A stretch of 64,000 nucleotides of DNA. Origin: Schmidtea polychroa (taxonomy: Eukaryota). Within the stretch, counting starts at the first letter, position 1. Each line of letters begins with the position of its first letter. The notes beneath the pieces were generated by a model. It was given only the letters and a program-made list of their open reading frames with translations. It searched no databases and was not told where the DNA came from. The position numbers were made by a program, and so were the translations under genes. Shown here one piece after another: positions 55,170 to 64,000 of this stretch. The stretch is from NCBI GenBank assembly GCA_044892525.1, contig CM097885.1, positions 19,408,001-19,472,000 of the forward strand, given 5' to 3'.

Positions 55170-56537
55170 CTTTTTTGTTTAGATAACGCGCGTAAGAGAC
55201 AAAAATATTATTTTAAACAAAATATGAAGAAAAAAGAATGTCAGAAGCTAAAAAATCTAACATGAAACCATTTTTATTTTATTATTTAACTAGAAATGAG
55301 TTATTAAAAATATTATTTCGTCACGTTTTTCAACTGCAAAAAATCCTATTAAACTGGTTTCTCAAATAGCAATTTCTGGAATTAATGTTTTCAAATGAAA
55401 AAAGATTTAATTCAAATTTCACCAATGTGCCTTGCTGGATCTGACAAACTACAAATCCACAAAACTTCTGGACGCTGCAGTTGATACTAACGAATAAACA
55501 CTAATATATCTCTTTATACATATTTATTTATATATTATAAATAAAAAAACAGTTTTAATTTGTTTCTTCAGCAGTATCAATACAATTAATCATAAATATC
55601 GTTGTCAAACGAATTCGTGGAAAACTGAGAATCATTGCAATAGCCAACTTCAAAATTTTTTATAATAAAAATGGAATTATGAGAAACTTTGAAATTAAAA
55701 TACAAAACCACCAAAACGACGTCTCCACAATAACTCCAATATTCGAACAAAGACAATCAAGTTGTCTCTCAGGTTTTGAAAAAACTTATATCGTAGAACT
55801 CGATCTTATCAGATACATCTTTACAATTTGAAGTCCACAAATCTTTCTCACACAACGATAATAGTAATAAGATAATGAAATCAAACCCAAAAAAATATCA
55901 AAGATAGCGCAACGACAATATTAATGTTGTCTAAATTCTAAATATCAAAGAACTACATGAACTCGGGAAATTTAAATATTTCACATTGATATCTTTGGAC
56001 TTTTACACCCAGTAAAAAATAAAAAGTATATATTTTCTATAATTAACAGGTAGTCATATGGGTCAAAGGTCATTCGGATCTCGAGTATTACACAGAGAAT
56101 AATTTCAAGTACTGTAGAAAATGAATAGATTTCATGTTATGAACTTCCTGAATGTGATGATCTTTATCAACCGATATCTATCAACTGATATATTTACAGA
56201 AAAAGAGGTTATATCAGATTTATTATAGTTATGTAAAATTTAATAAAAACTTTTATTATTTTTTTAAATTAAAAATGTGGATTTCCATTCAAGAATTTTG
56301 TTTAAATTTTACTCGCTACAAGCGTGACTACTACATATCACCAATGCTATCGAGATAAAATTACTTCCACTACATTCCTTGTTACATTAACCAATATATC
56401 TACGACAAAACTGTTGTTACAACAATGAGTAGATGGATTGGGCACCGCTGGCACAGGGCACCGCTAGCACAGTACCCCCCCCCCCCCCCCGGTCGTAAAA
56501 TTTTAAAAAAATTCTAAGTCTAAAAGTTCATTTTTTT

Positions 56538-57205
56538 CCAAGGTCAAATTTAAACAAAGACATATGACTCATCAAGGTCATTGAAACAAAGACCATGACT
56601 CATCCTATGACTCATCAAATTTCTCAAGGTCATTTAAAACAAAAACCATGACTCATCCTATGACTCATCAAGGTCATTTTCAAGGTCATATGACTCATAA
56701 TATGACCCATCAATGTCAAAATTTTTTCAAGGTCATTTAAACAAAGACCATGACTCATCAAGGTTATTCTCAAGGTCATATGACGCATACTATGACTCAT
56801 CAAGGTTATTTTCAAGGTCATATGACTCATCCGATGAGTCATAAAAATTTTCAAGGTCATGTAAACAAAGGCCATGGCTCATCCAAGGTCATTCGCAAGG
56901 TCATATAACTCACCCAAGGTCATTTTCAAGTTCATATGACTCATTCAAGGTCATTCACAAGGTCATATGACTCATACTATGACTCATCAAGGTCATTCTC
57001 AAGGCCATATGACTCATGCTATGACTCATCAAAAATTTCCCAAGGTCATTCTCAAGGTCATATGACTCATACTATGACTCACCAAAAATTTTCAAGGTCA
57101 TTTTCAAGGTCACCTGAGTCATCCTATGACTCATCAAGGTCGCATGACTCATCCAAGGTCAGTTGCAAAGTCATATGAGTCATCGCGATGAGTCATCAAG
57201 GTCAT
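56538..57205 (+). repeat. Complex tandem array of TGA(C/G)TCA and CAAGGTCA motifs
   Basis: Manual count: ~22 TGACTCA/TGAGTCA, ~21 CAAGGTCA and several AAACAAAG. Confidence 0.95.
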
Positions 57206-57349
57206 ATTATTATTTTTAAAAAATATTATTTTTTTTATTATTTTTTTAAAAAAATATTATTATTTTCAAAGTTCCCGCCGACGAAAAGTATTCATCGATA
57301 GCTCATTTTAAAGTTCAATCCAAGACCTTTCGAATGATCCACATATCGT

Positions 57350-57557
57350 GTTATTATGATTATTATTAATATTATTATTATTATTATTATTATTATTATT
57401 ATTATTATTATTATTATTATTATTATTATTATTATTATTATTATTATTATTATTATTATTATTATTATTATTATTATTATTATTATTATTATTATTATTA
57501 TTATTATTATTATTATTATTATTATTATTATTATTATTATTATTATTATTATTATTA
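57350..57557. repeat. (ATT)n microsatellite
   Basis: Direct observation. Confidence 0.97.
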
Positions 57558-57802
57558 GTATTAGTATTAATCTATATACTCCGAATCTATCCGACAAAAT
57601 ATTTTGTCCCCCTATGGGTAATGCTCACAAGGGTACTGCTCACGCTCAACAACTCACAAATCAACAAATCAACAAAACATACATTTATTTAAACAATAAA
57701 ATAATGTAAAATTAACAAAGGTAAACTAAATATTGATGAACTACTATTCGCAGCAATATTGTTTGAAATTGGTAACGTTGAATTGATTTTCAGATATTCT
57801 TT

Positions 57803-58189
57803 TTATCCTTTGATTGTTTGAATTTCTCTTAATAATAATTCAATCTTTTTTAACAAATAATCATGCTTCTTATCAATAATTTTCATATTCCTTTTATTTT
57901 CAACAATAGAGTTATTGAAAACTTCAATATGATCAATCAATTTAATTTTTATATTTTGTATATATTCAAATGATAGTTCATAACTGTTTTCTAAATTCTC
58001 CAATCTTTGAGATATTCTTTTTCCTGGATGCTTTGACCATTTTCGTTTGTCGAGAATATATAAAATATCCATCAACTTGGCTGTATTCGGACAAACACAT
58101 ATTGATTTATTAAAAGACTCCACTGTTATTGTTGTATTGTGTGAGCACACACTAGTTATAATAATTAGCAATATGAATATAGTTTTCAT
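57803..58189 (-). CDS. Putative secreted coiled-coil glycoprotein (element accessory gene)
   Basis: Signal-peptide-like MKTIFILLIIITSVCS, sequons NTT, NKS and NNS, heptad-like C-terminal half. TATA ~30 nt upstream. Confidence 0.65.
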   Translation of the reverse strand: MKTIFILLIIITSVCSHNTTITVESFNKSICVCPNTAKLMDILYILDKRKWSKHPGKRISQRLENLENSYELSFEYIQNIKIKLIDHIEVFNNSIVENKRNMKIIDKKHDYLLKKIELLLREIQTIKG

Positions 58190-58294
58190 GGTGTATCAAA
58201 TCAAAACCTTTCTTTTACATTTATAGTCTATCAACCAATCAAAATCATACGGTATTAGTATAAATAAAACATCATATTTTAAATTATTGTAGAA

Positions 58295-61897: not shown

Positions 61898-61925
61898 AAA
61901 ACTTGTAACTGAAAATTTCTCTGCA

Positions 61926-62324
61926 ATGAATCTTATTTCTAAAAATCCTAAACCTAAACGTAAAACCCGTAAAACCCGTAAAACCAGTAAAAAAGTAGTT
62001 AAAAATCATCGCAGTTTTCCATTTTTTAATGCATTGTTAAAGGCCCCGAGTATGAAAAGAATGAATATATTGCAATCATTCCCAAATGTTGTTGTCGATG
62101 ATTTACTCGATATTATACTTAAAGTAGTCAAAGGCAAAATTAAAATCAGTAAATCAAAAAAGCATTTATTGAGCAAACATAGGAAACCATTGTTATCTTT
62201 AGTAAATAATAAAAATCGTAAGCAAATGAGGAAAATTATATATAAACAACAAGGTGGATTTATTGGTGCATTGATACCTCTGGCATTATCATTATTAGGT
62301 GGAGTTGTAGGAAATCAATCATAA
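61926..62324 (+). CDS. Basic Maverick core-like protein with GG cleavage-like motif and hydrophobic tail
   Basis: K/R-rich N-terminus. The C-terminus QQGGFIGALIPLALSLLGG resembles the small core-type ORFs of Mavericks. Confidence 0.75.
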   Translation: MNLISKNPKPKRKTRKTRKTSKKVVKNHRSFPFFNALLKAPSMKRMNILQSFPNVVVDDLLDIILKVVKGKIKISKSKKHLLSKHRKPLLSLVNNKNRKQMRKIIYKQQGGFIGALIPLALSLLGGVVGNQS

Positions 62325-62327
62325 ACA

Positions 62328-62555
62328 ATGGGTGCTAATCCTTCATTGCCCGACATTAAATTTAATTTTAAATCTTCTTGTTGTAATGGAGAAGATTTGG
62401 ACGAACCCAGAAGACGAAGCCGGTTTCGGTGGAGTGGCAAAATTAAAGAAAAGAGTTCCGAATTCGAAAAAAGAAACCCAGAAGTGGTTATCAGATCAGC
62501 TTGCGTACAGTTTGAACAAACCAATGCGGAAAAGATTTCCAACAAGAGCCTATAA
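62328..62555 (+). CDS. Overprinted 75-aa ORF with N-myristoylation motif
   Basis: MGANPS fits G2/S6, followed by SSCC and RRRSRFR. It starts 3 nt after the previous stop and overlaps the integrase 5' end in another frame. Confidence 0.55.
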   Translation: MGANPSLPDIKFNFKSSCCNGEDLDEPRRRSRFRWSGKIKEKSSEFEKRNPEVVIRSACVQFEQTNAEKISNKSL

Positions 62556-63498
62556 AACATTTGGTATTGACGATTTATGGCAAATGGATTTGATGGAGAT
62601 GATATCTTATTCGAAAATTAACAATGGGAATAAATATATTTTAACATGAATTAATGTATACAGCAGGTTTGCACGAGCAATACCAGTCAAGGCAAAATCT
62701 GCAGAAGAAATGTCCAAAGCAATTAATATTTTATTTAAAGATGGACATCCTAATAACTTGCAAACAGATTTAGGTATTATTATTATTATTATTATTATTA
62801 TTATTATTATTATTATTATTATTATTATTATTATTATTATTATTATTATTATTATTATTATTATTATTATTATTTTAGGTAAAGAATTCTACAATAGTAA
62901 AGTTAAGCAAATCCTCGATAAACTGAAAATAAATCACTACTCGGTACATTCTCAATACAAAGCTGCCCATGTTGAAAGATTTAATCGAACATTGAGAGAT
63001 AGATTAAAGAAATTGTTCGTGCATCAAGGTAATAAAAAATGGGTAAATGTTTTACCGAAAATAATAACAAGTTATAATCATTCATCACATCGAGGACTGA
63101 ATGGATTGAGACCGGTTGATATTACATCAAAAACATCATTGACTTCTAAGAAATCTGTAAAAATTGCAAAACCTAAATATAAAGTCGGTGACCATGTTAG
63201 AATTAGTAAAATTAGTGCATCACCATTTTTTAAAAATTTTGATACAAATTGGAGTGATGAAGTCTTTGTAATTTCAAAAATAAATACTAAACAGAATCCT
63301 GTAATGTATGTCATCAAAGACAATGATAATAATATTGTACAGGGGAAATTTTATGAGCAGGAATTACAAGTCATTCCTCCCCCAAAGGTATTTAGAATTC
63401 AAAAAATATTGAAAACTAAAAAGGTCGGTAAGGATAAACAATACTATGTCAAATGGCATGGTTATCAAAACCCGTCAGCAAAAGACCTAGTAAAGTGA
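62386..63498 (+). pseudogene. Maverick retroviral-like integrase with chromodomain (one nonsense codon, one candidate intron)
   Basis: MEKIWTNP..GFGG, DDE motifs WQMD / QTD(L)G|KEF / VERFNRTL, VGDHVRI and NWSDEVF, then chromodomain YYVKWHGY. TGA at 62647-62649; GT-AG intron at 62774-62878. Confidence 0.93.
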
Positions 63499-64000
63499 AT
63501 TTTTATACTATTTTGCCAAGCAATAGTTGTCCATTAATTCATCCAGAAAATCAAGCAAGCAAATTCATCATCGAACTCAAAAAACCCCATCTATCTGGAT
63601 ATTGACTGGGAAGTTGCTCTGTTGGATTTTACATTTGTATACAATTTATTCCCAATCTATAGCAAATCAGTTATTGAATATAATAAGAAAGTAGCAGTAA
63701 CGGAATATATTAGTGTTCTTATTGATAAAGATAGTTATAACTTGACGAGTTCATCGAAATCAAGGAAACCTATAATTTATGATGATGGTCAATATTTATA
63801 CATGAATTGCTTGAATAAGCCATTCGAAATTTTATTTTCTACAGTGGCTGATGCTAAACGTCTTGGATTTACTGATTTACGTAATGTATTTAATGATACA
63901 GTCAAAATAAATCTCTCTACACTTCCAAAAACTAATAATTTAGTGGAATTCAAATTTAAGCTATCATACTTTGAAATAACAGAGCATGCATATACTTTTA
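63495..64000 (+). pseudogene. Maverick minor capsid (penton-like) protein, 5' part, frameshifted
   Basis: NFYTILPSNS..HPENQASKF..L/..IYLDIDWEVALLDF. The start is GTG overlapping the integrase stop (probably an ancestral ATGA). +1 frameshift at ~63580-63588. Confidence 0.75.

Follow-up and report, generated by a model that had tools for sequence, protein, structure and literature searches.

A deleted Maverick provirus of adintovirus type with a short TBP gene beside its packaging ATPase, and a possible early/late programme in its family

Which element starts at position 56428 of the window, that is, of the whole 64,000-base stretch of DNA analysed here (G000:C1:19408001-19472000 of a 781-Mb assembly, ~27% G+C), and how might it use the row of small genes, one of them for a TATA-binding protein (TBP), that separates its left terminus from its virion genes? 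The first half of the question can be answered with near certainty: the element is an internally deleted, mutation-damaged Maverick/Polinton provirus of animal adintovirus type. The answer to the second half is tentative. As read from its sequence, the family to which this copy belongs would run an early/late transcription programme, a proposal to which we give somewhat less than even odds and of which we infer every mechanistic step. A deleted Maverick provirus whose family works in this way is the best explanation overall, with a probability of roughly 55%. Mavericks and adintoviruses sit between transposons and viruses, and to our knowledge almost nothing is known about the control of their own genes. 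A virus-coded TBP beside the packaging ATPase, together with a promoter box that its own gene lacks, makes a concrete, testable model of an early/late switch, and an abundant family with many copies open for the genes examined is a natural data set on which to test it.

Termini, virion genes and state of the element

The element begins exactly at 56428 (AGTAGATGG...), the very base at which the original prediction had placed its start, is 12,304 bp long in total and ends 4,731 bases beyond the window, within L011, the 10 kb directly past the window end. An exact reverse complement of its first 45 bases occupies L011:4687-4731, and the right terminal inverted repeat that had been expected past 64000 is present there (L011:~4138-4731, ~594 bp), opposite a left one of ~885 bp (56428..57312, + strand). 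The 6-bp target-site duplication, foretold as ACAATG, stands on both flanks (56422..56427 and L011:4732-4737), and perfect 6-bp duplications, differing in sequence, were found in all three complete copies for which both ends are in hand. A terminal repeat runs from the terminus through a 16-nt direct repeat, a poly-C tract, a motif array and an A/T-rich stretch to a short unique inner edge. In the left one, the 16-nt repeat occurs twice (56440-56472); the two arms are ~80% alike over the first ~480 nt, and their arrays are unequal in length.

Long terminal inverted repeats, a 6-bp duplication, a packaging ATPase of A32/FtsK type and a cysteine protease of adenain type are hallmarks of Mavericks, and all four are found here. 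The ATPase gene (61157..61783, + strand) has an open frame of 208 aa that scores 29.1 bits for PF04665 (cut-off 22.8). The protease gene, also open, lies past the window at L011:2038-2505 and scores 23.4 bits for PF00770, against 26.9 for the copy in L028 and a cut-off of 21.3. The earlier identification of a Maverick/adintovirus-like element is thus borne out by the termini, the duplication and the Pfam scores of these two genes. The remainder of the core module follows the ATPase on the plus strand after the TBP gene, as had been described: a gene for a very basic core protein with a hydrophobic C-terminus (61802..62324, + strand; 180 aa and an isoelectric point of 12 in other copies), an integrase gene (62332..63498, + strand) and a gene for a penton-type vertex protein (63453..64000, continuing to L011:512, + strand), the last named from its position and its homology to metagenome relatives only. 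The integrase appears to combine an rve core with a C-terminal chromodomain. In L027, a full-length copy used as our reference, the rve match has an E-value of 1.3e-5 and 25.8 bits, below the cut-off of 32.6, and the window copy matches rve_3 only (E 0.005); the homologue in a second Maverick family of this genome, 68% identical, reaches 45.6 bits for rve, above the cut-off. The chromo matches at the C-terminus (E 2.3e-4 and 3.3e-4, 21-21.5 bits) are likewise below their cut-off of 25.1. Beyond the penton gene come an open gene for a 123-aa protein (p123, L011:505-879), the broken pieces of a capsid gene (L011:876-2093) and the protease gene, so that both the capsid and the protease looked for past 64000 have been found; the interval from the protease to the right terminal repeat is degenerate and rich in repeats. 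In a full-length relative the capsid candidate has 406 aa. Pfam itself gives no match for it, and its nearest Atlas clusters, which score 0.97-0.98, include some that carry the double-jelly-roll family PF21738, in 15% and 65% of their members.

Compared with its relatives, this copy lacks ~6.7 kb, including the genes for the polymerase and the RING protein, from the interval that separates the repeat-rich stretch from the right terminal repeat. No tblastn match to the polymerase was obtained in the two stretches of the element, and L011:1-4200 holds no frame of polymerase size; the PolB gene expected past 64000 is absent from this copy and was found only in full-length relatives. Stops or frame breaks affect the genes for the secreted protein, the Bcl-2-like protein (two stops), the acidic protein, the core protein (an 11-base gap puts its N-terminal part out of frame), the integrase (stop at 62647-62649), the penton (frame break near 63587) and the capsid, while the frames of p136, the Cys-cluster protein, TBP, ATPase, p123 and protease are open. 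The "few stops and frameshifts" of the original prediction were therefore too low an estimate, since at least seven genes are hit and two more are wholly missing. An alternative genetic code behind the in-frame stops was considered and rejected: the stops are of at least two kinds (TGA, TAG), and the same places are open in other copies. The window copy is unable to act alone and could at most be moved by proteins from other copies.

The family is very abundant in the 781-Mb genome, with at least 150 near-identical loci: the ATPase was 99-100% identical in all 150 own-genome loci scored, and so was TBP in all 150 scored for it, the 5,122 (ATPase) and 4,168 (TBP) candidate places seen at first look not being copy numbers. 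We sampled seven other copies from the top of the ATPase list, that is, not at random. Two of them, ~19.3-19.6 kb in length, have an open polymerase frame, which makes good the suggestion that intact relatives may exist; one is 11,758 bp long, and the rest are truncated, have other deletions or are copies whose ends were not found. The ~19.3-kb relatives also rule out 12.3 kb as the full length of the family.

In the full-length copies the polymerase frame is 1,254-1,323 aa long. It has 52% identity, in an alignment of 1,370 columns, with a frame from the second Maverick family, one that PF03175 matches at 120 bits. This similarity, together with motifs read by eye, is the basis of its identity; hmmscan did not list PF03175 for the polymerase of this family or of the second one, and phmmer found no match to it among solved structures. 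As to an OTU domain, no Pfam OTU family matched the polymerase at E<=1, and an N-terminal Cys...His pattern was read by eye. The RING gene, present in full-length copies only, lies between the polymerase and the right terminal repeat; in L028 (8153-8644) it codes for a protein of 163 aa with a C-terminal RING of the type found in IAP proteins (zf-C3HC4_3, E 1e-10).

The small genes of the left arm

ORFs (open reading frames) were found at all six positions claimed for small genes between the left terminal repeat and the ATPase. Nearest the ATPase lies the gene that most concerns us, the short TBP (60620..61057, - strand), whose 145-aa frame is open. The TBP call is firm, and here the original prediction was fully confirmed: PF00352 was matched at 55.1 and 56.2 bits (cut-off 22.9), a profile of the family reached 7e-19 against TBPs of known structure, and all 44 Foldseek matches of the structural model (predicted local distance difference test, pLDDT, 95.1) at E<=0.001 were TBPs, with E ~4e-8, template-modelling (TM) scores of 0.72-0.76 and ~22% identity. 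Sequence and modelled fold match cellular and archaeal TBP over both halves of the saddle. The differences are that the short TBP has 145 aa against ~180, that several DNA-contact positions are apparently changed, as read by eye from alignments, and that, in the model, only the second repeat is whole, the first retaining its strands without either of the long helices. Its 108 relatives, of 96-232 aa (most 145-160), all match PF00352 and form a family of their own; in a viral contig collection there was one distant TBP relative only.

Such a protein could be a decoy, which would draw TATA boxes or TFIIB-type partners away from host TBP and thereby damp transcription of the host or early transcription of the element. 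The second repeat of cellular TBP carries the TFIIB-facing side, and a complete second repeat joined to a first one without helices is a plausible dominant-negative design. We consider this improbable, as it leaves unexplained the distinct, conserved box that, as described below, precedes virion-module genes with constant spacing, both in two families and in many metagenome relatives.

The gene for p136 (59337..59747, - strand; frame open) had been described as a possible single-stranded DNA-binding protein (SSB), for which we obtained moderate support. A model built from 15 natural relatives (pLDDT 88.9) appears to have an OB fold, and a fold search against 48,161 representative chains placed African swine fever virus (ASFV) CP312R, a DUF2815 phage protein, the phage Enc34 SSB and T7 gp2.5 as its top four (Z 7.5-6.8, 101-126 residues aligned) and baculovirus LEF-3 eighth; Foldseek listed the Enc34 SSB first (E 0.019-0.10). 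With these SSBs of T7 gp2.5 type (T7 gp2.5, Enc34 SSB, ASFV CP312R and LEF-3), p136 appears to have the OB fold in common, and it differs from them in being shorter and in having 4-12% identity and no detectable sequence similarity. A resemblance of p136 to T7 gp2.5-type viral SSBs is thus held with moderate confidence.

Both genes reach far beyond this family. Among the 80 TBP loci of our metagenome contig scan, the ATPase was on the same contig in 23 and p136 adjoined TBP in 19 (by tblastn), most contigs without one or the other being too short to tell; integrase, penton, p123, capsid, protease and polymerase were seen in the longer contigs, and the neighbourhood is constant where orientation varies. 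In the second family of this genome, p136, a 54%-identical TBP and a Cys-rich gene lie side by side, with the TBP and SSB-like genes beside the packaging ATPase. Across a wide clade of such elements, TBP and the SSB-like gene have been conserved in synteny, and the Cys-cluster gene recurs weakly in one other family of this genome. To call the first two accessory, as had been done, does not fit them, for they are not loose cargo.

The place of p136 is taken, in the distant metagenome relative L099, by a gene for a PC4 protein (transcriptional coactivator p15; 1302-1793, E 3.6e-21) that adjoins a TBP-like gene (2285-2713). In four more distant relatives a phospholipase A2 (PLA2) of parvovirus type (PF08398, E 4e-12 to 8e-11) lies directly upstream of the TBP gene (L074:5246-5659, L078:7276-7704, L079:3994-4398, L083:9086-9487); a PLA2-type gene is among those described for adintoviruses in the accessible text of PMC8502044.

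The Bcl-2-like gene (58295..58809, + strand) is composed of exon 1 (58295-58591), a putative GT..AG intron (58592-58635) and exon 2 (58636-58809), the 44-nt intron being read from its GT..AG ends and the frames on either side. In this copy the gene is broken by in-frame stops at 58505-58507 and 58729-58731, and an AATAAA stands at 58805-58810. Pfam gave PF00452 as the top match of exon 1 alone (14 bits, E 0.075, cut-off 31.4) and nothing for exon 2 alone. A profile of six natural exon-1 sequences gave 16 matches to solved chains at E<=10, 12 of them to the Bcl-2 family (best E 0.047), with alignment at the BH1 region of A1/BFL-1, the schistosome chain 3qbr and BAK/BAX; exon 2, which holds a BH2-like motif and a hydrophobic tail, matched 46 chains, all of them Bcl-xL/Bcl-2 aligned at BH2 (best E 0.063). 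Among 30 Atlas neighbours of the Bcl-2-like exon, 18 are Bcl-2 clusters, and one neighbour cluster combines PF01691 (Adeno_E1B_19K, 20% of members) with PF00452. Each single E-value exceeds 0.04, but two independent exons agree, in the right order from BH1 to BH2, with a hydrophobic C-terminal tail after them, and for that reason we hold the identification as Bcl-2-like, moderately supported as it is by these profiles and neighbours, to be likely.

Contigs from four runs, whose kind is only guessed and which cannot show RNA ends, listed no splice junction over the putative 44-nt intron. In those of run X4 there are A-runs that depart from the DNA beyond 58824, a point 14 nt downstream of an AATAAA, and beyond 61827, which is a hint only. 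Runs X5 and X6, which bear a second organism label, gave very high summed depth from the ATPase to the integrase and scarcely any over the small genes (57650-62770 compared); the organism of that label may have a related element with a different left arm.

The three remaining small genes all lie on the minus strand. The secreted-type protein (57692..58189) has a predicted signal peptide, a coiled coil, N-glycosylation sites and a hydrophobic C-terminal tail, with weak coiled-coil-type matches only in Pfam; it is 166 aa long in other copies and 128 aa here, owing to an in-frame stop at 57803-57805. The acidic protein gene (58869..59204) is frameshifted here and probably has a 5' micro-exon and a short intron; in other copies its product is 36% Asp+Glu and has a C-terminal Cys motif, and it could be assigned to no family. 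The Cys-cluster gene (60144..60548) has two exons, its short intron being in frame in this copy. It matched no Pfam family and no protein in a set of 5.8 billion, and a weak relative lies at the matching place in the second family. The gene occurs in two forms ~50% identical to each other, and the window has the rarer one.

All of the small genes are present in the window copy and in the five sampled copies that reach their region, so the co-occurrence with core genes that had been asked of other copies was seen in 5/5. We nevertheless rejected the idea that the six form one co-inherited accessory cassette: two are clade-wide, one recurs weakly in the second family, and three were unfound outside this family. 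The latter, the Bcl-2-like, secreted and acidic genes, look to be the only lineage-specific ones, with 0/80 metagenome loci by tblastn.

This last count bears on the possibility that the left-arm genes are passenger captures without a role and the arrays neutral satellites that merely resemble transcription-factor sites. From 20 longer contigs we collected 120 unassigned ORFs of at least 70 aa and scanned 88 of them with Pfam; none of the 88 belongs to the Bcl-2 family, and relatives hold quite different cargo at this place, with PLA2, dual-specificity phosphatase, leucine-rich repeat (LRR), C2H2, RING and KilA-N proteins in the contigs as a whole. The length of the arrays also varies freely, both between copies and between the arms of one copy. 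Against this stands the ratio of nonsynonymous to synonymous divergence (dN/dS), pooled from pairwise comparisons between copies with 4-9 copies per gene, which is below 1 for all 14 genes: 0.06 for the ATPase, 0.09 for exon 1 of the Bcl-2-like gene, 0.10 for the protease, 0.30 for p136, 0.34 for TBP, 0.42 for the secreted protein and 0.64 for the acidic protein. TBP and p136 are, moreover, conserved and syntenic far outside this genome, and the arrays retain their motif content and polarity in a subfamily with a polymerase of only 66% identity. For TBP and p136 the passenger reading is already unlikely, and for the left arm with its arrays we give it little credence.

Exon 1 of the Bcl-2-like gene, compared between the window (58295-58603) and L019, L023, L027, L029 and L031, has a synonymous divergence of 0.49, against 0.05-0.07 in neighbouring genes; its alleles are old and strongly conserved as protein. 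The penton gene, too, occurs in two forms, ~55% identical (L021:7839-8891, L029:7605-8669 and L031:7686-8750 against L027:7590-8654), among copies that are mostly 90-100% alike in other genes. Such a mosaic of gene forms is the pattern shown by recombining virus lineages, and the penton and Cys-cluster forms look like module exchange or like diversifying selection on a surface protein.

Promoter classes, terminal arrays and the working of the family

CCAAT and TATA motifs had been noted upstream of the small genes and can be read directly. The secreted and Bcl-2-like genes diverge from one promoter (58190..58294) with a single CAACCAATCA box and, measured on L027, TATAAA at -36 of each start codon. 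The p136 promoter (59785..59825, - strand) has an inverted CCAAT box, TGAGTCA and TATAAAA in gene-strand order. Upstream of the Cys-cluster gene there are three CCAAT boxes in a 15-nt tandem repeat (60598..60635) and no TATAAA within 150 nt. In the head-to-head intergenic region of TBP and ATPase (61058..61156), TATATATAAA faces the TBP gene. The secreted, Bcl-2-like and p136 genes thus have a CCAAT box with TATAAA, and TBP has TATATATAAA.

A second class is defined by TATAAACAA, which stands in the same intergenic region at 61124-61132, 33 nt before the ATPase start, and again at 61769 before the core protein gene. L027 has six copies in 10 kb against 0.65 expected, a count that none of 200 shuffles reached, and every one of them is on the strand of the gene that follows it: at -33 of the ATPase, -33 of the core protein, -42 of the capsid, -91 of the integrase, -101 of p123 and, for the acidic gene, ~37 nt ahead of its inferred start. 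In the second family of this genome the box stands at nearly identical distances, -31 for the ATPase, -41 for the capsid and -101 for p123, and none precedes TBP, p136, polymerase or protease. In metagenome relatives, where TATAAAC was counted within 120 nt upstream and loci without an N-terminal match or with less than 120 nt of upstream DNA were dropped, it precedes 15/23 ATPase, 5/7 capsid and 4/4 p123 genes, compared with 0/58 for TBP, 0/18 for p136 and a background of 139 in 4,424 windows (3.1%).

The motif array that had been reported near the element end was confirmed: it occupies 56564..57204 (+ strand) and holds ATGACTCAT 20 times, TCAAGGTCA 14 times and AACAAAG. Over the window, TCAAGGTCA totals 15 against 0.38 expected and ATGACTCAT 21 against 0.66, numbers that none of 100 shuffles reached, the copies being units of a tandem repeat and not independent events. 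All eight terminal repeats examined have 9-28 copies of ATGACTCAT and 10-26 of TCAAGGTCA (both strands counted), and TCAAGGTCA points inward in 122 cases against four in the opposite direction. In the diverged subfamily with the 66%-identical polymerase, terminus, 16-nt repeats and poly-C tract are all retained, and the array, of 43-nt period, is built with ATGACTCAT, CAAGGTCG and AACAAAG. Outside the arrays, TGAGTCA recurs in the unique promoter of p136, between the CCAAT and TATA boxes. We take ATGACTCAT to be a palindrome of bZIP/AP-1 type, TCAAGGTCA an extended half-site of the type bound by monomeric nuclear receptors, and AACAAAG a site of SOX/HMG type.

For this family we favour the early/late programme, with which the two classes of promoter, the conservation of TBP, the SSB-like gene and the arrays are all in keeping. 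On this proposal the left arm would be an early-type module, in which genes for a secreted glycoprotein, a Bcl-2-like, an SSB-like and a Cys-rich protein and the short TBP lie behind ordinary CCAAT and TATAAA promoters. Host factors on the bZIP- and nuclear-receptor-type terminal arrays might switch the module on, as is suggested by dense, oriented site arrays in the adjacent terminal repeats. The OB-fold protein p136 would then support protein-primed replication by the polymerase of full-length copies, and the Bcl-2-like protein would keep the host cell alive. Finally, the element's stripped-down TBP could take over transcription of a virion module, made up of the ATPase, core, minor and capsid genes (with the acidic gene), behind a TATAAAC(AA) box that never stands before the TBP gene itself. 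Whether a whole clade follows a two-step programme of this kind, in which a host-fired early module is followed by a minimal TBP of one and a half repeats that redirects host polymerase to a clade-specific TATAAAC late box before the packaging and capsid genes, with its SSB-like neighbour (in L099 the PC4-domain protein) as co-factor, seems to us doubtful, and the extension is put forward with less confidence than the proposal for this family.

Chief among the rivals is a role for the short TBP and the arrays in handling the genome at its ends, where the former would bind the repeated sites as a packaging-signal or origin-auxiliary factor and work with the ATPase or the polymerase. The TBP gene lies beside the packaging ATPase across very diverged elements, in either orientation (the 23/80 loci given above), and the arrays are in both terminal repeats of every copy, with constant polarity relative to the end. 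The terminal repeats of adenovirus are used in a comparable way, through packaging elements in several copies and sites for host factors. The first-repeat helices of TBP are surfaces used by cellular partners, and it is these surfaces that the short TBP is without. On the other hand, the TBP gene belongs to a promoter class without the ATPase's box, which fits a regulator made before the virion genes, and the array motifs match well-known host-factor sites and are not TATA-like, one of them recurring in a unique promoter. We judge packaging or replication at the genome ends unlikely on this evidence, though less so than the decoy or the passenger reading. It would be favoured if the short TBP bound terminal-repeat DNA only, and not DNA of the TATAAAC(AA) or TATAAAAG type.

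Several points also weigh directly against the early/late programme. The "late box" is no clean rule: the exact box was found before only 4/16 integrase and 1/7 penton genes of metagenome relatives, the acidic gene of the left arm has a TATAAAC box as well, and some metagenome contigs are near-duplicates, so that the box counts overstate the number of independent cases. With both first-repeat helices lost and, as read from alignments, some DNA-contact residues different, the short TBP may fail to bind TATA boxes altogether. As tandem repeats, the arrays can spread without function, and the names of their factors come from consensus sites. For p136, Z-scores of 6.8-7.5 are in the range that the search tool calls "middling". 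The Bcl-2 evidence is below significance for each exon, with no significant sequence-only link to cellular Bcl-2, and exon 1 had only one close relative in a scan of 1.8 billion representative proteins and two in another search. The pairs behind the dN/dS values are non-independent, with only 4-9 copies per gene.

Three long TTA/ATT-type runs lie within the element. A (TTA)73 microsatellite (57351..57569) is directly inside the left terminal repeat; with a further run at 59966-60078, it flanks the left terminal repeat and the p136 promoter. The third is a (TAT)33 run in the integrase frame (62775-62874), which is translated as poly-Ile and varies in length between copies (gaps of 1-35 residues). 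Elsewhere in the window, four polymerase fragments of a different Maverick type (34238-35619, + strand), 36-59% identical to the polymerase of this family, point to the remnant of a second, older element, and a 162-aa ORF (54681-55169, + strand), ~1.3 kb upstream of the element, has a weak match to Helitron_like_N (PF14214, E 8e-4, below cut-off).

Comparison with known systems

The Bcl-2-like gene alone is not new, as Bcl-2 cargo has already been published for this class: in the accessible text of Starrett et al. 2021 (PMC8502044; preprint 10.1101/697771), Bcl2 and IAP homologues "were also observed" in adintoviruses, and "TBP" appears there only in a figure legend on related viruses of non-animal hosts. 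A preprint from the Buck laboratory (10.1101/2024.03.25.586562) defines adintoviruses, in its accessible part, by three features, namely a polymerase that bears an OTU domain, a hexon that can be recognised as such and an integrase of rve type with a chromodomain at its C-terminus; that part contains no word beginning TBP, TATA or Bcl. Among the papers that full-text searches on such elements and TBP or TATA listed, none was concerned, by title and abstract, with a conserved TBP or a late box in them. A short TBP as conserved neighbour of the ATPase, the TATAAAC class and the terminal bZIP/nuclear-receptor arrays are undescribed in the accessible portions of the literature searched, and supplementary gene maps may label such genes.

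With Mavericks/Polintons of the adintovirus kind, the element and its family have in common long terminal inverted repeats, a 6-bp duplication, the adenain-type protease, the packaging ATPase, candidate capsid and penton genes, a probable rve integrase with a chromodomain and, in the full-length copies, a protein-primed polymerase. Adenovirus is comparable in its linear, protein-primed genome, its Bcl-2-type anti-apoptotic early gene, E1B-19K, and its own SSB, the E2 DNA-binding protein. It has, furthermore, host-factor sites at the genome ends and an early-to-late switch, both of which are conjectural in the present element. We know of no adenovirus with a TBP or an integrase of its own, and no gene like adenovirus E1A was recognised in this element. 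The likeness to an adenovirus early region that the original prediction had drawn is a fair analogy, one of function only.

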